This document shows, one piece after another, positions 253-52,088 of a stretch of DNA of 64,000 nt (the stretch's first letter is position 1; the number at the start of each line of letters is the position of its first letter). The translations under genes were made by a program, and so were the position numbers. The DNA is from a virus. Its lineage: Duplodnaviria > Heunggongvirae > Uroviricota > Caudoviricetes. The DNA is taken from IMG/VR virus record IMGVR_UViG_3300031993_000014, positions 50,987 to 114,986 of that record, one strand, 5' to 3'. The notes under the pieces are model-generated. The model did no database searches. It saw only the letters and a list, made by a program, of their open reading frames with translations, and was not told the DNA's origin.

Positions 253-1584
253 CTAAACATTTCTACCGTTCGGATATACGCACTTCAGTGTAGGGAATCT
301 TAAGCTCGGTAAACCTGTCTTGTCATCAACAGTCTCTTCAAAGTACTGGACACAGATGGTTTTACCTATGATGCGGCCAGGATGTTCGGCCCAATTAAGG
401 GATTCGTCTCTAGAGATACCGCTGCCGACCGTAACCTTGTTACCTTTGAACGTTATGTTCAGTCCGGTGCAGCAGTTATCAAACTTGACGTTACCGCGTC
501 CTGCCATGCTGTAGGTCTTCTCACCTACTTCGATGCTTTCTACGATGAACTCAGCATCTTCAAATTCTTTAACCTTCAATAAGGACTTCTTTCTTCCGCT
601 TTCATACGGTGCATCTTTACGAAGCATGAAGCCTTCCCAGTTGCCTTCTGCAACTCGTTTCTTCCACATCAGGAAGTCTGCTTCCGAGGTGATTCTTTCT
701 TGTTCGAGTGGATGAATAGCACAATACAGAGCATCACGGTCATGAGAGTCAGACATGGCTTCATTGAATAATTGTTTCATCGTCTCATAGCGTTCGCTGA
801 AGATCGGGCTGGTTTCTTTCATGTTAAACTCAGCTTCTGTCAGGAAATCGAACACGCGATAAGACGGGTTGGGAATCTGGAAATCCTTTTTAGAGATAAC
901 CTTCATGATAGACTTAAAGTCTTCATCGCCTTTCTCATCCACGATGCAGCACTCGCCATCAAAGACGTAGTTGCCATCGGTTTCAATATGAGAAGCCACT
1001 TCCCTGATGAAAGGCTTAAGGTTTTCCAAAGTAGTAAATCTGTGGTTGGTACGAGAGATAAAATCAACATCGCTAACATCACGGTTGACAACAGTAAAAT
1101 GTGTTGTACACCTTACGCCATCAAGCTTACGGCTTCCGAACCAAGTGCCGTCCGTTGGGTCTACACCCTTGACGTCCTTGATGTTCTTGGCTAGCGATAC
1201 TTCGTACTTGGTTTCATTGGGGTATGCGATCTCACGGTATGTCTTACCCGTGATACCGATCTTCATGTTGTGTTGAAGGACACAGTCAAGATATTCTTGG
1301 TCTTCTTCTCTGAACAGAGAGATAAGCTGTTCAACAGCCGACACAGCTTCATTTCCTGTGATCTCTCTAGCTGCAAGCCTCCTCAGAAGATCATGGAATT
1401 CCGGATAGTTCGCATCCAGAGTCTTTGTACCGACGGAGTCTACATTGTACTTCAGTACTCCGTATACCGCTGTAGTGTAACAGTCTTCCAAGATGGGCTT
1501 CAGTATTTCAAGATTAGCTCTGAGAATGTTGTGTTTTTCAGAACCGGGGGTTTGCTTGATTTTGTCAAGAATTTCTCTGATCAT
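253..1584 (-). CDS. lig: ATP-dependent DNA ligase
   Basis: KxDG adenylation motif (RKLDGVRC), FDGE, EGFMLRK, LLKVK and SLRFPT motifs; start moved to ATG 1584 (ttggagattacATG). Confidence 0.93.
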   Translation of the reverse strand: MIREILDKIKQTPGSEKHNILRANLEILKPILEDCYTTAVYGVLKYNVDSVGTKTLDANYPEFHDLLRRLAAREITGNEAVSAVEQLISLFREEDQEYLDCVLQHNMKIGITGKTYREIAYPNETKYEVSLAKNIKDVKGVDPTDGTWFGSRKLDGVRCTTHFTVVNRDVSDVDFISRTNHRFTTLENLKPFIREVASHIETDGNYVFDGECCIVDEKGDEDFKSIMKVISKKDFQIPNPSYRVFDFLTEAEFNMKETSPIFSERYETMKQLFNEAMSDSHDRDALYCAIHPLEQERITSEADFLMWKKRVAEGNWEGFMLRKDAPYESGRKKSLLKVKEFEDAEFIVESIEVGEKTYSMAGRGNVKFDNCCTGLNITFKGNKVTVGSGISRDESLNWAEHPGRIIGKTICVQYFEETVDDKTGLPSLRFPTLKCVYPNGRNV

Positions 1585-1600
1585 GTAATCTCCAAGATTT

Positions 1601-1634
1601 AAAAATGAAACGGGAGACACCGAAGTGTCTCCCG
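1601..1634 (-). terminator. intrinsic terminator
   Basis: perfect 10-bp stem CGGGAGACAC-UUCG-GUGUCUCCCG followed by UUUCAUUUUU. Confidence 0.85.
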
Positions 1635-1709
1635 CCCCTTAACCTAACCAAAGGAGTAAACAGGACGTGGAACCATACGCCCTCAGCCATCCTCTCATGA
1701 GGCATAGCC
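1601..1709 (-). ncRNA. candidate phage small RNA with anti-Shine-Dalgarno tract
   Basis: AACT-N6-TG promoter at 1709-1720, 5' hairpin, single-stranded GUUUACUCCUUUGGUUAGGUUAA, then a C(UUCG)G terminator; no RBS-led ORF inside. Confidence 0.6.
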
Positions 1710-1720
1710 AATGGTTAGTT
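1709..1720 (-). promoter_or_regulatory. AACT-N4-AWTR phage promoter (small RNA)
   Basis: AACTAACCATTG on the minus strand, exact match to the motif seen upstream of 19 other genes. Confidence 0.65.
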
Positions 1721-2545
1721 GAACGCCCTTTTCCCGTTTTTAAGGATGCGGCAAAGAGGCAGAACGATCTCTTCCAAAACTGGGTTCAGGTCTATGTCGT
1801 CTCGGAATTCATCCGGGAAGTCTCGATAGATGTGTTGAACCATGCCAGATACCGTGTGTTGAAGACGGAGTGTCATTGGAATGAATCCTGTCTTCAGGCT
1901 GACATAATACGATTTTGGTGCTCGTCGTTCCATGAGCTCTAACTTTAACTTTCTCAGGTCTGGAAGCAGAGCTATGGATTTCTCACCACGCTCAAGCCGT
2001 TTAAACCAGCCGAGAAGGAGCTTACCTATTCCGTCATTGAACGCTTGCCTAGCATTTTCCCCTACTCCTTTGATTTTCAGACTCCGTAAGTCTTTGTTGA
2101 CGAACACAGTGAATCGATTGAGCCGTAGATATCCGGCATACTCCTCAGCTCTTCTAAAGTGAACCTCGCCGAAATCTAATCTAGGCACTATTGTTCGATG
2201 TTCCATCACTGTGACGGAGTCATTGTTTATGGCTAAGAGATTTTCATCCGAATAGTCATTTTCTTGAAGAAAGTTCCTCACAGATTCTCGAATCCCGCGA
2301 GTGAGTTCCTTAGAGAATTCTGGATCTTTTGCTCTAATCTTTCCTACAACGATGTTCCTCTCAAGCTTAGGCATTGCCGACAGCATGGAGATATCCTCTG
2401 GAGAGAGAAGCTTTCGATCCTTGATGACAGAGAGACCCGCACTGCTCATGTCGTATTCACGAATGAGATAGGGCGAGAATCCATACAAAAATTCGATAGT
2501 CGGGTCTATGTAGGATGACTTCATAGCCAACTTTTCGGTCATCAT
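1715..2545 (-). CDS. conserved jumbo-phage protein with family-B polymerase palm-like motifs
   Basis: IREYDMSSAG (motif A-like), INNDSV (motif C-like), LKIKGV; resembles from memory a family conserved in AR9-like phages; RBS ggagactagatATG. Confidence 0.5.
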   Translation of the reverse strand: MMTEKLAMKSSYIDPTIEFLYGFSPYLIREYDMSSAGLSVIKDRKLLSPEDISMLSAMPKLERNIVVGKIRAKDPEFSKELTRGIRESVRNFLQENDYSDENLLAINNDSVTVMEHRTIVPRLDFGEVHFRRAEEYAGYLRLNRFTVFVNKDLRSLKIKGVGENARQAFNDGIGKLLLGWFKRLERGEKSIALLPDLRKLKLELMERRAPKSYYVSLKTGFIPMTLRLQHTVSGMVQHIYRDFPDEFRDDIDLNPVLEEIVLPLCRILKNGKRAFN

Positions 2546-3438: not shown

Positions 3439-3657
3439 CTATTTGTAACGGAATGTGATAAATCCCCTCGTAAGATCATAGGGACATATCTCAATCTGTA
3501 CACGATCGTCAGGCAAGACTCTGATGAAGTTCTTCCTGAGTTTCCCCTTAATGGTACAGATTACTTCATGGTCATTGTCAAGCTTCACCCTGTAGCGCCC
3601 ATTACTGAGACACTCAAGGCAGGTAGCATCAACCTTAATTCCTTCTTCTTTAGCCAT
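3439..3657 (-). CDS. infA: translation initiation factor IF-1
   Basis: 72 aa MAKEEGIKV...RVKLDNDHEV...GKLRKNFIRVLPDDRVQIEICPYDLTRGFITFRYK is typical IF-1; RBS gaaggagaagaATG. Confidence 0.93.
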   Translation of the reverse strand: MAKEEGIKVDATCLECLSNGRYRVKLDNDHEVICTIKGKLRKNFIRVLPDDRVQIEICPYDLTRGFITFRYK

Positions 3658-9561: not shown

Positions 9562-9573
9562 AACTTGTCAATG
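9562..9573 (+). promoter_or_regulatory. AACT-N4-AWTR phage promoter
   Basis: AACTTGTCAATG directly upstream of the endonuclease RBS. Confidence 0.6.
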
Positions 9574-11853: not shown

Positions 11854-11882
11854 TATAGAACCATTAACCAAAAGGATAAATA

Positions 11883-12431
11883 ATGGCTTATACTATCGAA
11901 AAATTCCTTGACGATCTTGACAAGGCTCTCTATCATTTCCAGATTGGTGATATTGTTACGCACGAAGAAAAGTGCCAGTGCGGATTACTTCATGGTTCTA
12001 CTGACATCAAGAAAGTATCCCTCATTTGGGAGCACAAAGAAATTGCTAATGCTCTCATGGACATCGATACTGGCCTGGTTACCGTTCATGCCAGAAAGAC
12101 CATTGACGGGGAACTGAAGTCTATTCATCCTTTCTTCCTTAAGAGCTGCATCAGGTCATGTCTTGGGCCTGTAATCAAGTGGATTCGTGGAAGAAACAAG
12201 ATTGGCGAAATCTTCGATGATATCCACTATGCGGAAGATTTCCCAATGCCGTTGGAAAATAGACGGCGTGTCATTTTCCCTCTTGTTGATCGTAGTATCA
12301 GAGTAAACACAGACACCGAGAGTGGTCTCATATCTTTCATCGAAGGTCTCATCAAGTGGTATGGGAAAGACAATGTTATCAAAGTTCAACGCATCCAACA
12401 AACGGAGGAACAGAAAGATGGCAATGGTTGA
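11883..12431 (+). CDS. hypothetical protein
   Basis: 182 aa, RBS aaggataaataATG. Confidence 0.75.
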   Translation: MAYTIEKFLDDLDKALYHFQIGDIVTHEEKCQCGLLHGSTDIKKVSLIWEHKEIANALMDIDTGLVTVHARKTIDGELKSIHPFFLKSCIRSCLGPVIKWIRGRNKIGEIFDDIHYAEDFPMPLENRRRVIFPLVDRSIRVNTDTESGLISFIEGLIKWYGKDNVIKVQRIQQTEEQKDGNG

Positions 12432-14032: not shown

Positions 14033-14535
14033 TCAATCTGTTCTATACCGGGACTTACAGCACTTGGCACGCTTACATTAATCCCAGCAATGTTAGGGAT
14101 AAGCTTCGTGACGACTTTAGGTCTCGGCTTGTCGAAAGAATTGATGACGTGATCTATGCTAGCGACGGGGTAGTGACAAAGAATCCCAATGTAAGATACG
14201 TAGGCGGTTTCTACTATGAGAAATCTAAAGGTATCTACAAAACAGAAACAGAAAACGTGGTAGCTGCAGAGCTTGAACAGATAGAGCGATGCGACATTCT
14301 CGTAGCAAACTTGTTAACTCATGCTGCTATCGGGAGTGTGGTTGAATTGTTCCATGCTGCTAAGCACAACAAAGCTATCCATGCGTTTATTGAAGACAAG
14401 GACGACGCATTTGCCGTAACTGGCGAATACTGGTTTCCTATTTACACGTTGCAGCTTTACAGCAGCAATATAACCATCCACAAAGTGAAGTCTGACAGAG
14501 AGATCTATGACTTCATCATGAACCTCAGGGAGTAA
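14029..14535 (+). CDS. nucleoside 2-deoxyribosyltransferase (NDT/Rcl)-like protein
   Basis: LFYTG near the N-terminus, ELEQIERCDILVANL, IGSVVELFHA (GxxxE motif). Confidence 0.65.
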   Translation: MINLFYTGTYSTWHAYINPSNVRDKLRDDFRSRLVERIDDVIYASDGVVTKNPNVRYVGGFYYEKSKGIYKTETENVVAAELEQIERCDILVANLLTHAAIGSVVELFHAAKHNKAIHAFIEDKDDAFAVTGEYWFPIYTLQLYSSNITIHKVKSDREIYDFIMNLRE

Positions 14536-14538
14536 ACA

Positions 14539-25095: not shown

Positions 25096-26352
25096 ATGTC
25101 TCTTATGTCCAAATTCCGTGAAAAGACTATGGGTGCTCAGCGCAAGGGTGAGTATTTCAAGGATCATGCCATCCCGACTGGCTTCACGCTCATCGACCTT
25201 GCTAACGGTTGTATCGATCAGGAAAATAACTGCTTTGAAGCAGGTCTTCGTACTGGTCGTATCTTCTCCGTTTGCGGGTTCTCCGGTTCTGGTAAGTCTA
25301 CGCTTATTGCGCAGCTCACATTCCCGATGGCGAAGCAATTCGAGAATGCTGACGTCTTCTGGTTCGACGCTGAAAAGGCTGCTAACGGTAAGTCCCGCTT
25401 CATTCAGCTTTACTGCGGTCATGACAAAAATCCGGAATTGCTCCAAAAGTTCTACGAACAGGTTCGCATAGAAAGTGAAAACACTTATCTTGACAACCTT
25501 GCTGAGTTCATCAAGGAAACGCACGATTTCAAAATGCAGCATCTTGAAGAACTCACCGAAGAAATTGTGGGCTACGACGGCAAGAAACATCAGGTTCTTG
25601 CTCCGACAATTATTGCGGTTGACTCGTTGGCTGCTACATTCTCCAAGTCTTCTTCTTCCAAGGCTGAGGATGACGGCGAATTGTCGAATAAGACAGCTGG
25701 CGCACAGCAAGCCATTGAAAACAATGACTTCATGCACAAGTCTCTGAACATGCTCTATTCTGCGAATATCATGATCGGGCTTGTATCTCACTTGAACACA
25801 AAACCCACTATGGGTACACCTGAAGTTTCTAAGATCCCGTTCCTCCCGCCTAACGAAAATATCAAGGGTGGTTCCGGCCCGGTGTTCGATGCCGACTTCA
25901 GTGCCAAAATCTTTAAAGGAACAATTCTCCATGCGGAAAAGGACTATGGCTTCGACGGTTTCGTCAACTATATCCAGATTTTGAAATCGCGCTCTAATGT
26001 GGCTGGTCGCAAGTACCCGTTGGTATTTGACAGTACACACGGTGGTGTCTATGATAATCTCTTGTCTAACGTACAGTTCTTGTATGAAACAGGCGATATT
26101 AAAGCTGCTGGCCCGTACAGCGTGTTGAACTCTCTGCCTAGCGTCAAGTTCACTAAGAAGACGGTTCGTGAAGTGGTTGCACAACACCCGGAACTCGGTG
26201 ATGCTATTGAAGCAAAGGTTATTGAGATCATGACTGGCAAGATGTACCATTGCCCGATTGTCACAACGGATTCTACTGTCTCTGTTGAAGAAGCACAGAA
26301 GATCCAAGCGGAAATGGGCACAAAGGTTACGAACGCTGCTGAAGCTAAGTAA
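25096..26352 (+). CDS. recA: RecA/UvsX-like recombinase
   Basis: IPTGF..ID, Walker A GFSGSGKST, WFDAE, Walker B IAVDSLAA, GGSG..FDA, ILKSR. Confidence 0.88.
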   Translation: MSLMSKFREKTMGAQRKGEYFKDHAIPTGFTLIDLANGCIDQENNCFEAGLRTGRIFSVCGFSGSGKSTLIAQLTFPMAKQFENADVFWFDAEKAANGKSRFIQLYCGHDKNPELLQKFYEQVRIESENTYLDNLAEFIKETHDFKMQHLEELTEEIVGYDGKKHQVLAPTIIAVDSLAATFSKSSSSKAEDDGELSNKTAGAQQAIENNDFMHKSLNMLYSANIMIGLVSHLNTKPTMGTPEVSKIPFLPPNENIKGGSGPVFDADFSAKIFKGTILHAEKDYGFDGFVNYIQILKSRSNVAGRKYPLVFDSTHGGVYDNLLSNVQFLYETGDIKAAGPYSVLNSLPSVKFTKKTVREVVAQHPELGDAIEAKVIEIMTGKMYHCPIVTTDSTVSVEEAQKIQAEMGTKVTNAAEAK

Positions 26353-34058: not shown

Positions 34059-34577
34059 TTAACCTTGAGACGCAAGAATCTGCTTGATCAACCACGGCTT
34101 ACCATAGCGGAGCGGACGCTTCACATCAGGAGCAATGGCTTTAAGGTAGTCGTCGAGTTCTTCAACCGTCTTAGATTCCAGAGTGGCTTTGTCAAGCTTT
34201 TCCGGAGTCGTCACGGTATCAACGACAGCTTCAGCAGGAGCTTCAGGTTCTTTGACAGGTTCAGTATTGGCTACAGGTTCTGGTGTAGCTTCAACTTGCA
34301 CTGGTGTTACTGGTGTTTCTGCGGGTTTAGCAGTTTCAGTGGCAATCTTTTCAGCAGCGATGACGGATTCCTCTACCTTCGTAGCAGGTTTCCTTTCAAC
34401 CTTCTGAGAGACGTTCTGTACAACAACCTTTGGCTTAACCTTGACACCAGTGATTACCACCGGATAACCCAAGGCACAGACGGTCTTGTACAACTGGTCA
34501 CTGATCTGTTTATTGGTGAATGGCCCTTTACCAATACCCGGAATCACTCCAGTGTAATTTGTAGATACAACTTTCAT
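34059..34577 (-). CDS. protein with P/E/T/A-rich linker and C-terminal Rho-N/HeH-like module
   Basis: C-terminus LESKTVEELDDYLKAI..GKPWLIKQILASQ fits a helix-extension-helix pattern; RBS taaccaaaggagtatcttATG. Confidence 0.55.
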   Translation of the reverse strand: MKVVSTNYTGVIPGIGKGPFTNKQISDQLYKTVCALGYPVVITGVKVKPKVVVQNVSQKVERKPATKVEESVIAAEKIATETAKPAETPVTPVQVEATPEPVANTEPVKEPEAPAEAVVDTVTTPEKLDKATLESKTVEELDDYLKAIAPDVKRPLRYGKPWLIKQILASQG

Positions 34578-34602
34578 AAGATACTCCTTTGGTTATACTG
34601 AA

Positions 34603-42895: not shown

Positions 42896-45679
42896 TTACT
42901 TTTCGTAATTAAAGATGATTGTCTTGTTAGCCATGAGAGTTTCGTTGTTAGTCTCGATACCGTGATTCTTCAATAGGATGAGGTTACATGGTTCTTGCAT
43001 GAATTCTCGGTTATGGCTAATGACGAAGCACTGTTCCACCTTGAGATCGGCAATCTGTCTTCTCAGCATCTTGACAAACCCAGTACGGTTCTGTTCATCA
43101 AGCACACCGTCTACTTCATCAAGGTATACGATGTTGTAGGAGTTGTTGATAGCCTTATTCAAGATAGCCAGAGACAGAGCTTGCTTGACAAACGACTGTT
43201 CAGCACCGCTTCCGAGCTTGCAGTCATCCAAGACGGTTCCATTGCTCTTCACGATAGGGATAGAGAAATCCTTTTCTGTGATAACAAAGTCGCCGATGAG
43301 CAGCTCACCGTTAAAGGCAATCTGGAGCAGGTGGTTAGCCTTCTCACGGATCTCTTCAAGGTAAGTGTCAATGAGGTATAACGGAATACCCTTGGTCTGG
43401 TCGCAAGCAGCCTTAACAGCTTCAACGGCATTGTACTCGTCCTGAATCTTGGCAATGCTAGCTTCGAGTTCATCACGCTTCTGCCTTTCGTACTTGTAGT
43501 TGTTAAGCTCGGTCTCCATAGCCTCTTTTTCCTTACGAGCATCAGTGATCTTTGTCGTAAGTTCCAAGAGAGCTTGACGGCTCTTAGCAATATCAGCAAG
43601 ATATTGAACCATCTTTTCAACCTTAGCCTTGTTCTCTTCGATTTCCTTTCGTTTCTCTTCAAGAACAACAAAGGCTTTCTTCAGGTTCTTCAGATGTTCG
43701 ATACGATCGCTGATAGAAGTAACTTCCTCGTTAGCAGCTCTGAAGCCTTCTTCTTCGGTACTGTAGCTAGACTGAAGCTCTTCGACCTTAGACGATGCCT
43801 TGGAGAGAGTTTCTCTGGCTGCACCAATGGCTTCGGCTTCACTGCTTACAGCCTTGAGCTGAAGCTTAGCATTAGCCAATGAAGAACGAGTATTTTCAAG
43901 TTCAAGTCTGGCATTAACGTAATTCTCGATATCGGAGACATCAAACAAGTCAAACAGCTCGTCTTCAGTACCCTTCAAGTACTTCAGATAAGTCATCGTG
44001 TCGTTCAGCATCTGGATCTTAGAAATCAACCTGAGAGACAGCTTCTTCGAGAGTTCTTTCTTGAAGTTCTCGTAAATATCGCCACAGGAAGACAAGAAGC
44101 TAATCTTGTTGGTAAGATACATGGCTTCATTGTTCAATGAGTCACGGTCAATGGAAGCGAATTCTTCCTGTTCCTTCCTAAGAGCTGCAAGACGGATGAT
44201 GGAACCCTTAGCTTCAACAGCTGCTGCAATGAACGGACAAGAGTCATTCTTACAAGAAGCCGGACGCTTGTTCAGCACTTCTTCAAGCTTAGCCTGAGCT
44301 TCAAGGAACTTGATGTCACTAGCGATAGTGATAATCTTGTTACGCTTTTCTTCAAGCTTTTTTAGCTCGGTTGTAGCCTCGAACAAGAGCTTGTTCACAA
44401 CAGAGTGATCTGTCAAATCAACATCAGACAGGTCGTAAGACTTCAGCTGATCACGAATGCCAGAAAGCAGAGTGTTAGCTTCGATGGATTCTCTCTTGAG
44501 AATTGCCAGTTCAGCTGCTCCGTAAGTGGTAAACTTCTTGTACTTGATATCCACATACTTAGACTTCATTTCTTCTGTGCATTGCTGAAGCTTTGTTTCG
44601 CCATCAGCGATCATTTCATTAAGACGATCCACTGTTCCCTGAGAGTCTTCAAGAGACTTCAGCTTAGCCTCTGCTCTTTCCTTTGCTTCGATGGCTTCAT
44701 TAAGACCAGTCTTAGCGTTATTCATCATAACAGAATGAGTAGTCTTAGCTTCTCTCGCTTTATCAAGGTCAGGCTGAATATGCTCTATCTCTTCATCAGC
44801 ACTTGTCAGAGAGAAGCCTTCCGGAATCTCAGCTTTCTGAATATCATAGATGCTTTCGAGTTCCTTGATCTTCTCATCGACCGGATTCTTACCTGTTCTT
44901 GCGAATACACGGAGTTCAGGGATAGACTTATCAGTCTCTGTCAGGATCCCATCAATGATACCCTTTTCCTTTCCGTAATCCTTGTTAAGATCTTCAAGGA
45001 TGGTATCCTTATCCTTGATAGCGATCTCAAGATTATCGATAGCGACTTGGCACTTCTCCTTGGAAGAGAGCTTGAGGAGTTCATCCTTGAATGTAGCCAT
45101 CTGTCTACGGAGAGCCGTAAACTGTTCTGCTGCTTTCTTGTGGAAATTCAAGTATGGGTCAATAGCCGGAAGGAACTGTCCGATGAACTTCTTACGATCG
45201 CTCTTAGAAAGGTCAACGAAGTTAGCAATCCCACCAATACGACCGACGACGAAATAGTCTTCGGTTACGCCAAGATTGTCTTGAACACAGTCTCCGTATG
45301 ACTTAATCTTACCAGACGAGTTCAGATTCTGCCATCTGCCGTTTTCAAGCTTGTAGAAGAAACACTTAGACTCATGTCTCTGTTCTTCATCGTTCCATAC
45401 GTAGTTGATAACGGACTTGAAGACATTGTTCTCATCTTTCCTGAAGATGAGTTCCTTCATACCGTTTTCTTTTTCAATAATGATACGCTTACGGTTATCA
45501 AGAGAAGAAGGGAACGGATGCAGAACAGAAATGAGTGTAGTCTTTCCAGAGAAGTTCTTACCGAAGAGCATTGTAATAGGCTCATCGAGAGACTTCGTAA
45601 AATCGATTTCCAAAGTCCTGAGACCCATGCCTGTATAGAACCCAGCAAAGTTCTCAAACTTAGCTTTCAATATAATCAT
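42896..45679 (-). CDS. sbcC: SbcC/Rad50-like SMC ATPase
   Basis: GKNFSGKTT, long coiled coils with central CKNDSCPF hook, GSGAEQ signature, YLDEVDG, ISHN. Confidence 0.9.
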   Translation of the reverse strand: MIILKAKFENFAGFYTGMGLRTLEIDFTKSLDEPITMLFGKNFSGKTTLISVLHPFPSSLDNRKRIIIEKENGMKELIFRKDENNVFKSVINYVWNDEEQRHESKCFFYKLENGRWQNLNSSGKIKSYGDCVQDNLGVTEDYFVVGRIGGIANFVDLSKSDRKKFIGQFLPAIDPYLNFHKKAAEQFTALRRQMATFKDELLKLSSKEKCQVAIDNLEIAIKDKDTILEDLNKDYGKEKGIIDGILTETDKSIPELRVFARTGKNPVDEKIKELESIYDIQKAEIPEGFSLTSADEEIEHIQPDLDKAREAKTTHSVMMNNAKTGLNEAIEAKERAEAKLKSLEDSQGTVDRLNEMIADGETKLQQCTEEMKSKYVDIKYKKFTTYGAAELAILKRESIEANTLLSGIRDQLKSYDLSDVDLTDHSVVNKLLFEATTELKKLEEKRNKIITIASDIKFLEAQAKLEEVLNKRPASCKNDSCPFIAAAVEAKGSIIRLAALRKEQEEFASIDRDSLNNEAMYLTNKISFLSSCGDIYENFKKELSKKLSLRLISKIQMLNDTMTYLKYLKGTEDELFDLFDVSDIENYVNARLELENTRSSLANAKLQLKAVSSEAEAIGAARETLSKASSKVEELQSSYSTEEEGFRAANEEVTSISDRIEHLKNLKKAFVVLEEKRKEIEENKAKVEKMVQYLADIAKSRQALLELTTKITDARKEKEAMETELNNYKYERQKRDELEASIAKIQDEYNAVEAVKAACDQTKGIPLYLIDTYLEEIREKANHLLQIAFNGELLIGDFVITEKDFSIPIVKSNGTVLDDCKLGSGAEQSFVKQALSLAILNKAINNSYNIVYLDEVDGVLDEQNRTGFVKMLRRQIADLKVEQCFVISHNREFMQEPCNLILLKNHGIETNNETLMANKTIIFNYEK

Positions 45680-46281
45680 GAGAGAAACACCTCACGGTAG
45701 TTAATGTTGAAGTGGTCACGAGAGAGTTTAAGTGTTTCGTAGACCGAAGAGTAATCCGTAGGCTCGCCGTTAAACTTGAACCACAACGGGTTGATCAGTT
45801 CTTCCTTCTGGAGAAGAGTCTTAAGACCGTTAGGAAATCTTTTCAAGAAGTACATGTTCATTTCAATGAACACCTTAGAGCGTTCGAGAACATTCATAGA
45901 CGGAAATACATTGTTTTCTCGCTTCACTGTTCTCCAAGTCTCTTCCTTGATAGCTCCTGCCGTCCTTGTAAGGAACGTACCAAGAGCGTAGTCCTTAGCT
46001 TCCATGAACGGAGTTACCCAGTAGATCTTTTCATTAATGGCGTCAAGCCAGTTGAACCTGTCGTAGTTATCCGTTTTCATGTCGTTCGGGAAGCTGTCAA
46101 GAAAAGCGTCCATAGTCATGACACCCTTCGTCTTATCAAACTGTCCAAGAGCTTCAAGCGGCGATACTACGGGGATAGGCTTGACCTTTGCAAGCATATG
46201 GATCATTTCTTCTAGCAAGTCCATTCTGTTAATAAATGGCACGAAGAAAGACATGTCTACTACAATATTAAACATAGTCAT
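45676..46281 (-). CDS. hypothetical protein
   Basis: 201 aa, RBS aaccaaaggagaaccATG, ATGA overlap with sbcC. Confidence 0.7.
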   Translation of the reverse strand: MTMFNIVVDMSFFVPFINRMDLLEEMIHMLAKVKPIPVVSPLEALGQFDKTKGVMTMDAFLDSFPNDMKTDNYDRFNWLDAINEKIYWVTPFMEAKDYALGTFLTRTAGAIKEETWRTVKRENNVFPSMNVLERSKVFIEMNMYFLKRFPNGLKTLLQKEELINPLWFKFNGEPTDYSSVYETLKLSRDHFNINYREVFLS

Positions 46282-46296
46282 GGTTCTCCTTTGGTT

Positions 46297-51472: not shown

Positions 51473-51994
51473 TTATGAAGCTTTTTCCTCATTGGCAACC
51501 TCACTTGTACTAGGGAGGTCAAGGGGCTTGTCGCCTTCATCGTTCGGGATAAACTGCTTGTTCTTTTCGTAGAATTCTTCCGAAGAGACCGCACAGTGTT
51601 CGAAGTATTCCGGGAAGGTTTCATTCAACAGTTTAGTTTCTTCGCCGTTGCAGATCCACTTCTTACCGATAATGAACTGCTTGTTCGTTTTGTCTCCCTT
51701 GATGATTTCGAAAGCACACCAGTGGATAGTGATACCGTTATCAGAGATAACAGCAACAATACACTTGTCACCACCAGCCAATACGGAGATATCGCACTCC
51801 TTCTGTTCCTTGATATTGGCTTCAGAGATTTCGTTGCAGTCGCAGTCAACGATACGGCTGATTCTCAAACCATGAAGTTCGAGAGCATGACCCTTCTGGT
51901 CGAAACCCTTGTGAATATCCTGTTGCTTGGAGAATTCGACAAGGTAGAGTTTCTTAGAGTCAAGATAGGGTTTGATGTTCATTCCTTCGGGCAT
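51473..51994 (-). CDS. hypothetical protein (possible 22-aa in-frame extension to 51404)
   Basis: 173 aa, RBS aaggagtaaacATG, biased codons. Confidence 0.7.
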   Translation of the reverse strand: MPEGMNIKPYLDSKKLYLVEFSKQQDIHKGFDQKGHALELHGLRISRIVDCDCNEISEANIKEQKECDISVLAGGDKCIVAVISDNGITIHWCAFEIIKGDKTNKQFIIGKKWICNGEETKLLNETFPEYFEHCAVSSEEFYEKNKQFIPNDEGDKPLDLPSTSEVANEEKAS

Positions 51995-52088
51995 GTTTAC
52001 TCCTTAATTGATTTCATTTTTATAGTTCATACAATTCTTTGAAAGAGCAAAAAATAAAACCGGGTTATCTTTCGATACCCGGTATTCT

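Follow-up and report, generated by a model that had tools for sequence, protein, structure and literature searches.

What is encoded in the gap at 1601-1720 between two minus-strand genes of a rumen phage? The stretch of DNA analysed here, called the window, comprises 64,000 nucleotides (nt), bases 50987-114986 of the IMG/VR virus record IMGVR_UViG_3300031993_000014 (178,986 bp, ~69% complete), and the gap separates a gene for a protein of 276 amino acids (aa) from a DNA-ligase-like gene. An earlier note, made from the letters alone, had proposed that the phage RNA polymerase makes an RNA of ~105 nt from the gap, with an exposed tract that is complementary to the phage's own gene leaders and occludes their ribosome-binding sites (RBSs). 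Our analysis points the same way: positions 1709-1601 of the minus strand are most likely the gene for a non-coding RNA of ~105-109 nt, and the best explanation for it, to which we give a probability of about 0.55, is that of a trans-acting RNA which would occlude RBSs and so control a small phage regulon. Every comparative test that was run, on the promoter, the stems, the tract, the lack of an open reading frame (ORF) and the complementary boxes in leaders, came out in favour of this proposal, while the discrete transcript starting at 1709 and the repression of its targets are what we infer from it.

The window phage is an AR9/phiR1-37-like jumbo phage from the rumen, belonging to an uncultivated group. 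Its split gene for the beta' subunit of RNA polymerase (RNAP) is nearest to those of phiR1-37 (Yersinia), AR9/PBS1 (Bacillus) and the Staphylococcus S6-like phages (~27-33% identity), and its RNAP subunits have their closest counterparts in phiR1-37 and AR9. The libraries, of DNA and of RNA, in which the region occurs were made from bovine and sheep gut (rumen) samples. phiR1-37, AR9/PBS1 and the S6-like phages are jumbo phages that use their own multisubunit RNAPs for transcription. A search with the upstream protein returned nine relatives at 99-53% identity, and the lineages fetched through it, all uncultivated rumen phages, form the eight-lineage comparison on which the following results are based. 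The element is present in 8/8 of these lineages at one copy per genome, and in every relative contig whose DNA was fetched (L037/L038, L039, L040, L041, L043 and the deep-branching L042) it lies directly 3' of the stop codon of the upstream gene. It is also better conserved than the coding DNA that flanks it. Between the window's own 179-kb genome (G000) and a relative represented by a 235-kb IMG/VR contig (G001), whose ligase has 68% aa identity to that of the window and whose equivalent intergenic element shares an identical 25-nt block with it, nucleotide identity is 82% in the element versus 66-68% in the flanks; between the window and L042 the values are 73% versus 58%. The conservation in relatives that the earlier note had asked for is there for tract and stems alike, with an altered tract in L042.

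Covariation supports two hairpins and the terminator. Hairpin 1 (1685-1709, minus strand), identified with RNAalifold and pair counts, reads GGCUAU-G-CCUC[AUGA]GAGG-AUGGCU and has 10 pairs, a bulged G and an AUGA loop; 100% of its cells are paired, with an inner stem that is CCUC/GAGG, CUUC/GAAG or CUCC/GGAG depending on the lineage. Hairpin 2 (1662-1683, minus strand), identified by covariation, joins a variable stem of 6-7 bp, in which 5 of 6 pairs show double-sided changes and again 100% of cells are paired, to an invariant loop, AUGGUUC(C), identical in 8/8 lineages. The intrinsic terminator (1601-1638, minus strand), GGGGCGGGAGACAC-UUCG-GUGUCUCCC(G), was found by a terminator scan and consists of a stem of 14 bp closed by a UUCG loop and followed by a U-rich tail; the earlier note had recognised it as a perfect C(UUCG)G terminator. 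Of its 10 modelled pairs, 8 covary between lineages. For the whole model, 97.6% of cells are in standard pairs, versus 38-51% when the partners are slid by 1-3 columns, and double-sided changes occur in 16 of 26 pairs, versus 0-3 in the slid controls. None of 500 shuffles matched these values from the eight-sequence alignment, and the region folds more stably than all 200 shuffles (z = -4.4). Since the invariant G-U pairs fit the minus strand only, the RNA is placed on the strand of the genes. The single hairpin of 9-12 bp with AGGAUG in its loop that had been drawn before has to be given up: its CCUCA/UGAGG pairing is broken in L039, two hairpins covary, and AGGAUG belongs to the 3' side of the stem of hairpin 1.

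Other pairings were considered and rejected. An outer stem CUAACCA/UGGUUAG seen in the first fold lies upstream of the predicted transcription start and is unconserved in relatives, and a third hairpin suggested by RNAalifold (CCUUUGG/UUAAGGG) is weak, rich in G-U pairs and missing in L042. An alternative fold in which GAGAGGA of hairpin 1 pairs with the tract has the minimum free energy in 3 lineages and is lost in relatives that have GAGAAGA. Pairing of the tract in cis with the Shine-Dalgarno (SD) sequence of the ligase gene or of the upstream gene would involve merely 3-4 bp and is unconserved.

The part of the element that changes least is not a stem. The stretch that leads from hairpin 2 to the terminator, UUUACUCCUUUGGUUAGGUUA or in its fuller form (C/U)UUACUCCUUUGGUUAGGUUA, is invariant from UUACUCC to GGUUA in 7/8 lineages, L042 having UUUUACUCC--UGGUUAGGU instead. 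Within it, the near-invariant tract GUUUACUCCUUUGGUUAGGUUAA (1639-1661, minus strand) combines an anti-SD core, CUCCUU, with GGUUA and is the predicted seed of the RNA, the segment UCCUUUGGUUA being regarded as the one that would pair with leaders. As the earlier note had supposed, the tract is mostly unpaired, here in partition-function folds; it is conserved and accessible, as expected of a seed, over 21-25 nt. The arms of the terminator, by contrast, differ completely between lineages. Because they vary freely while the tract stays fixed, no conserved antiterminator alternative exists across the lineages; neither the constant linkage nor the alternative pairing expected of an attenuator of the ligase gene was found.

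No protein seems to be encoded in the element. It holds no SD-led ORF, in agreement with the earlier note, and a minus-strand frame of 19 codons from +5 is open in 6/8 lineages and broken by indels in the window and in L042. The plus strand displays AAGGAG, and the RBS of a translated gene at plus-strand 1645-1670 had been named as a finding that would overturn the RNA proposal; the GTG frames behind it run from 5 to 91 codons and lie in differing registers between lineages, so that neither frame nor length is conserved and this candidate was rejected. Because no ORF is conserved on either strand, we consider the element non-coding. It also matched no described RNA family, as had been suspected: a search of the whole window against Rfam 15, which includes C4, DicF, 6S, SRP, tmRNA and riboswitches, gave 0 matches at the gathering threshold, and a permissive search of 1560-1760 returned noise at E ~10.

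At the upstream end of the element is a phage promoter motif, AACTAACCATTG (1709-1720, minus strand), which stands exactly where the earlier note had placed it and proves to be one member of a genome-wide class. The exact 12-mer occurs a single time in the window, and the more general AACT-N4-A-W-TG occurs in 51 copies in the 179-kb genome, 44 of them in the ~10% of the DNA that is non-coding; 32 of these 44 sit 10-32 nt before a start codon on the same strand. Variants that differ by one base (AACA..., AAGT..., TACT..., ...TC) have 10-23 copies each with 0-3 in non-coding DNA, and AACA-N4-A-W-TG in particular is not enriched in this genome (10 copies, 2 non-coding). In the window the AACT of the motif overlaps the last codon and the stop of the upstream gene, and the motif is kept as AACT-N4-A-W-TG in 8/8 lineages although the position of the stop codon varies (FN, FNS or NN before the stop). 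Transcription would start at the final G of the motif, 1709, and this predicted +1 is the first base of hairpin 1; a promoter abutting a 5' hairpin is the layout expected of a dedicated, 5'-protected small transcript. The motif also precedes a phage tRNA-Met gene (genome 7692-7764, outside the window), so the same class of promoter and polymerase already makes a stable RNA.

This bipartite arrangement, AAC(A/T)-N6-T-purine enriched in intergenic DNA just before genes, is of the AR9 type. The late promoter of AR9, used by its non-virion RNAP, is AACA-(6N)-TA/G, and its last base is the mapped transcription start (PMC5312081). The two resemble each other in having a 4-nt upstream element, 6 nt and then a T followed by a purine start, in lying 10-30 nt before start codons and in also driving a phage tRNA gene, and they differ in the fourth base, which is T here and A in AR9, and in that the start is predicted here. 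Further copies of the motif in the window are found, for example, at 9562(+), 28723(-), 28743(+), 39982(-), 40003(+), 58953(-), 59797(-) and 62050(-), often as back-to-back divergent pairs. Some copies have no start codon within 60-430 nt (24997(+) in the window; 487(+), 29856(+), 49366(-), 141155(-) and 146966(+) in the genome), and a number of these precede hairpin-like sequence, where more non-coding RNAs or long structured leaders may lie.

If the tract is a seed, the phage should carry sites that fit it, and a recurrent leader box complementary to it, (U)AACCAAAGGA(G), followed by UA in its extended form, includes the SD of several genes. The best predicted target is the 14-nt perfect complement TAACCAAAGGAGTA (34582-34595, minus strand) in the leader of gene 34059-34577, which codes for a 172-aa protein with no known function. 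The leader of gene 45676-46281 (201 aa, no known function) carries AACCAAAGGAG followed by GAACCAUG at 46283-46296 (minus strand), of which 46286-46296 form an 11-nt complement, together with GAACCAU, and that of gene 11883-12431 (182 aa, no known function) carries GAACCAU and UAACCAAAAGGA at 11858-11876 (plus strand). In gene 51473-51994, AAGGAGTAAACA (51994-52005, minus strand) overlaps the ATG and is complementary over 12 nt to the 5' half of the tract, and a 10-nt complementary leader site lies at 14529-14538 (plus strand). A gene for an HU-like (HU/IHF-like DNA-binding) protein, ~25 kb before the window (genome 25790-26143, minus strand; L194:94-444, minus strand; Pfam Bac_DNA_binding, 6.6e-24), has the box CTAACCAAAGGA in its leader in both G000 and G001. 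The complementarities of 14, 12, 11 and 10 nt pointed out in the earlier note are real, and they exceed what is expected by chance when the CUCCUU core is retained and its flanks are shuffled. With this control, matches of 11 nt or longer are seen in 7 leaders of G000, where 0.95 would be expected and 0/500 shuffles reach as high, and in 9 leaders of G001, where 1.6 would be expected (p = 0.004); leader duplexes of -18 kcal/mol or lower number 19 versus 8.3 and 30 versus 9.9, respectively. AACCA is the commonest 5-mer just before AAGGA-type SDs in both genomes, with 4 genuine leaders in G000 (in addition to the RNA locus's own antisense site) and 7 in G001 where ~0.2 are expected.

These sites are conserved in orthologs as well as enriched. 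In four or more orthologous gene pairs of G000 and G001 the box is kept while its flanks diverge: the leader of gene 34059-34577 has TAACCAAAGGAGTA in the window and TAACCAAAGGAGTAA in G001, where 15 nt are kept, that of gene 45676-46281 has AACCAAAGGAG and AACCAAAGGAGTA, with 13 nt kept in G001, and that of the HU-like gene has CTAACCAAAGGA in both. Two more orthologous pairs retain the box as a G-U-compatible or interrupted variant. The G001 ortholog of gene 51473-51994 keeps 10 nt. In a third lineage, L193, from a sample shared with L039, the leader of the top target reads AACCAAAGGAGTAA and is complementary over 14 nt. The altered tract of the L042 type would be matched by box forms (U)AACCAGGAG and GGAGUAAAACA, and in the deep clade L067/L068 the top-target leader reads CCAAGGAGTAAAACA. 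Between this leader and the L042-type tract UGUUUUACUCCUGG, 11+3 nt can pair, an additional U of the RNA (UUUUAC) being met by an additional A of the leader (GUAAAAC); of the 14 leaders that could be compared in that clade, none forms a better duplex. GAACCAU, which is complementary to the unchanging loop of hairpin 2, is present in three of the box leaders, which suggests a recognition at two sites that would explain why this loop does not change.

We also observed a class of leaders in which one to three AACCA repeats are fused to a short SD, such as UUAACCAACCAAAGGAG and GAACCAUUAACCAAAAGGA, and which is kept in the 235-kb relative. Its sites include 11858-11882 (+), 46283-46296 (-) and 34582-34595 (-) in the window and 161014-161038 (+) and 26144-26165 (-) in the genome. 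The AACCA-repeat class may be a translational enhancer in itself.

Words of the RNA occur in RNA libraries from 8 rumen studies. In three studies, RNA-library contigs run uninterrupted over the upstream gene and the element, ending at 1637-1646; stretches that no RNA contig covers and runs with small shares of matching words were left out of account. The deepest of these libraries, a small size-fractionated rumen RNA library of 36 million letters, has contig depths of 119-143 over gene and element and of 3.5-5 over the ligase gene, a ~30-40-fold fall across the terminator. Because contig depth falls in this way into the ligase gene, the terminator works, and the element also belongs to the transcript of the upstream gene. 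The contig depths over 1201-2100 suggest that phages of this group are abundant in the rumen of cattle and transcribe their genes there.

Taken together with the features above, these data suggest how the RNA may work. It would be transcribed by the multisubunit RNAP of the phage from its own AACT-N6-TG promoter, as well as being made as the 3' end of the mRNA of the 276-aa gene, and either transcript would end at the strong intrinsic terminator. The product would present a 5'-terminal hairpin, a second hairpin with the AUGGUUC(C) loop, the single-stranded stretch UUUACUCCUUUGGUUAGGUUA and the terminator, in that order. Within the infected cell the single-stranded stretch is predicted to pair over 10-15 nt with the (U)AACCAAAGGA(G)UA box of a few phage mRNAs, covering the SD and 5-8 flanking bases, so that binding of the 30S subunit would be blocked and translation repressed rather than activated. 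Gene 34059-34577 is the first candidate, the others being the HU-like protein and several proteins of unknown function, and the outcome would be a post-transcriptional switch within the phage programme.

Several observations weigh against this reading. The contig that holds the RNA has only ~1.2x the depth of the contig of the upstream gene (143 versus 119), a ratio that fits a 3' untranslated region (3'-UTR) equally well as a separate abundant small RNA (sRNA), DNA carry-over is possible in the low-depth RNA-library runs, and contigs give neither ends nor strand. On the side of the targets, a CUCCUU tract will pair with whatever SD it meets, and complementary leaders are enriched significantly though modestly (~2-3-fold by energy, more for the longest exact matches). 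The box could also serve a function of its own, as a translational enhancer. The covariation between the L042 RNA and the L067/L068 leader is suggestive, the linkage of the two resting on their like divergence (50-54%) and their co-occurrence in one ENA sample. Simple seed pairing, moreover, does not account for the fact that the hairpin-2 loop and the middle part of hairpin 1 are invariant.

The depth data lead directly to the alternative that the element acts purely in cis, as a 3'-UTR or operon punctuation that stabilises the upstream mRNA and sets a low level of read-through, its tract being kept as a nuclease site, a protein site or the partner of an attenuator. Contigs that run unbroken from the upstream gene through the element at near-equal depth before the steep drop are what such a role predicts, the element always accompanies the upstream gene, and in both clades the downstream gene, which lacks a promoter motif between the terminator and its start, must rely on read-through. 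We nevertheless hold this explanation to be unlikely, if the least so of the alternatives. In every lineage the promoter motif is retained precisely at the base of hairpin 1, conservation is highest in the 21-25-nt unpaired stretch and not in the stems, and the divergent terminator arms beside a fixed tract leave no conserved antiterminator pairing. The L042 clade has a downstream gene without relation to the ligase, and there the element still follows directly on the stop of the upstream gene; because it travels with the upstream gene and its downstream neighbour differs there, it is not a ligase-specific leader. A role in cis also leaves the enriched, orthologously conserved boxes unexplained. 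A micro-peptide would offer another reason for conservation, since the 19-codon frame AUG(+5)...UAG, M(P/L)HE(R/K)MAEVDGSPPAYSFG, ends at the same UAG in the 6/8 lineages where it is open, and yet it is very improbable: it has no SD, its start lies inside hairpin 1, indels shift the window and L042 copies to unrelated sequence of 46 and >40 codons, and the substitutions are compensatory pairwise in the stems and not synonymous.

The invariant loops invite the different idea that the RNA is aimed at a protein or at the ribosome, as a decoy, sponge or scaffold that mimics the 3' end of 16S rRNA or titrates a host or phage RNA-binding protein. It displays repeated WUGGYU motifs (AUGGCU, AUGGUU, UUGGUU, UAGGUU) together with an anti-SD-like tail, the hairpin-2 loop AUGGUUC(C) and GAUGG of hairpin 1 are invariant and not required by seed pairing alone, and all relatives have an IF-1 gene in the syntenic position. 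The succession of hairpin, short linker and CUCCUU would loosely resemble helix 45 with the anti-SD of 16S rRNA. Both forms of this idea had been entertained in the earlier note. Sponges of the CsrB/RsmZ type carry GGAs in loops or spacers, whereas the loops here are AUGA and AUGGUUC(C), and the sole GGA, that of the AGGAUG motif, is in the covariation-supported 3' arm of hairpin 1, so that no GGA lies in any loop for CsrA to bind. As for mimicry of 16S rRNA, nothing favours it beyond the shared CUCCUU: past CUCCUU(U) the RNA has nothing in common with the 16S 3' end (GAUCACCUCCUUA tail), and a scan of bacterial genomes for a 16S-like CACCTCCTTTGGTTA tail gave >120 taxonomically scattered matches, about the chance level for a 15-mer in 596 Gb and hence uninformative. 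The UGGUU repeats are equally well explained by the AACCA repeats of the target leaders, three of which have GAACCAU. We regard a decoy as improbable. About as doubtful, in our estimate, is a more ambitious version of trans-acting control, in which the RNA would be the master of a dedicated translational regulon of AACCA-enhancer leaders recognised at two sites, the hairpin-2 loop AUGGUUC pairing with GAACCAU and the tract with UAACCAAAGGAG; the whole leader class would be switched off, or handed over, at a set time of infection. In the extreme form of that version the RNA would itself serve as an independent anti-SD, in competition with 16S rRNA for leaders that have an extended SD. The occlusion of RBSs in a small set of phage mRNAs remains the reading that we prefer.

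The genes around the element add to its description. The upstream gene (1715-2545, minus strand; 276 aa), which the RNA gene always follows, belongs to phrog_21037, a PHROG without known function; its protein has no Pfam match, and the Atlas points only weakly to DNA_pol_B clusters (0.88, 11% of members), so that no function is assigned to it. The downstream DNA-ligase-like gene (253-1584, minus strand) has the Pfam domain DNA_ligase_OB_2, and only 16 nt separate the U tail of the terminator from its ATG. In L042 a public gene call lays a 133-aa 'gene' over the RNA element (2280-2678 of that contig); this call is probably spurious, and the true start of the downstream ORF is at 2421, where the ENA copy has it. 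The gene for the homolog of translation initiation factor IF-1 (3442-3657, minus strand; 72 aa; Pfam eIF-1a, 8.5e-19) comes immediately after that for the RNAP beta' fragment and four genes ahead of the RNA.

Outside the lineages described, the element was not recovered. Covariance model (CM) searches found no paralogs of the RNA in G000 or G001, no element beside 16 more distant ligase homologs, and none at the syntenic loci of the cultured relatives AR9, phiR1-37, LPJP1 (Listeria) and MarsHill (Staphylococcus). In these four phages convergent genes begin 41-84 nt past the homologous gene, whose neighbour in AR9 and MarsHill is still the guanylate kinase gene. No additional lineages came from pattern scans, including structure-aware ones, of IMG/VR and JGI metagenomes, and exact matches to an 18-mer and to loop plus tract in IMG/VR were, the known relative aside, the antisense of ordinary RBS and ATG sites or an unrelated repeat. 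That repeat is seen in unrelated viral contigs, L019 (IMGVR_UViG_3300010149_000279) and L021 (3300006752_000949), as tandem units of ~50-60 nt (…ttcgcaggataccttgca.tgtatgt.aaaggtgactg…), one unit of which precedes the same 18-mer, TTTACTCCTTTGGTTAGG; it is a separate repeat element. From these searches the RNA family appears to be restricted to a clade of rumen jumbo phages.

As far as its sequence allows it to be classed, the RNA is a new sRNA family of a known mechanistic kind, with an unusually clear and testable predicted regulon. It resembles the RsaE/RoxS-type C-rich sRNAs of Firmicutes and the prophage RNA DicF in its length of ~100 nt, its 5' hairpin, its unpaired seed against the SD, its intrinsic terminator and its several predicted targets with a common motif. 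Unlike them, it comes from a virulent-type jumbo phage and lies behind a phage-RNAP promoter, its predicted regulon consists of the phage's own genes with an extended (U)AACCAAAGGAG box, and it has no relation to them by sequence or Rfam. The c4 antisense RNA of P1/P7 (Rfam C4) is likewise a phage RNA that blocks translation at the RBS region of a phage mRNA, shares a transcription unit with protein genes and may recognise two sites, to which the tract and the hairpin-2 loop, with the box and GAACCAU as partners, would correspond here. However, c4 has its targets immediately downstream in its own operon and controls immunity (ant), whereas the targets predicted here are scattered over the genome, and no Rfam C4 match was obtained at the gathering or the permissive threshold. 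Among phages with their own multisubunit RNAPs, differential RNA sequencing of phiKZ yielded a single sRNA candidate of 75 nt, unconfirmed by northern blot and with no proposed regulon (PMC8244752), which is the only reported jumbo-phage candidate that we found. The RNA described here is, like it, a non-coding RNA candidate of such a phage, and differs in having covariation support and conserved predicted targets and in being known from sequence alone. A keyword search of a 2025 review of phage sRNAs brought up examples that belong to temperate phages and prophages (PMC12197685).

How lytic and jumbo phages use RNAs of their own for post-transcriptional control is poorly known. Here, comparative genomics alone leads from a covarying RNA with a promoter, a terminator and an invariant seed to a short list of conserved predicted targets, the HU-like protein among them, and so to a concrete hypothesis. 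The leader motif (U)AACCAAAGGA had previously gone unnoticed in these phages, and AR9-like phage polymerases may transcribe regulatory RNA genes besides tRNAs. Should the rumen contain much of the RNA, its presence would mark active infection by these phages, and if the RNA does govern a dedicated regulon, it would be the first described sRNA-driven temporal switch in a self-transcribing jumbo phage.

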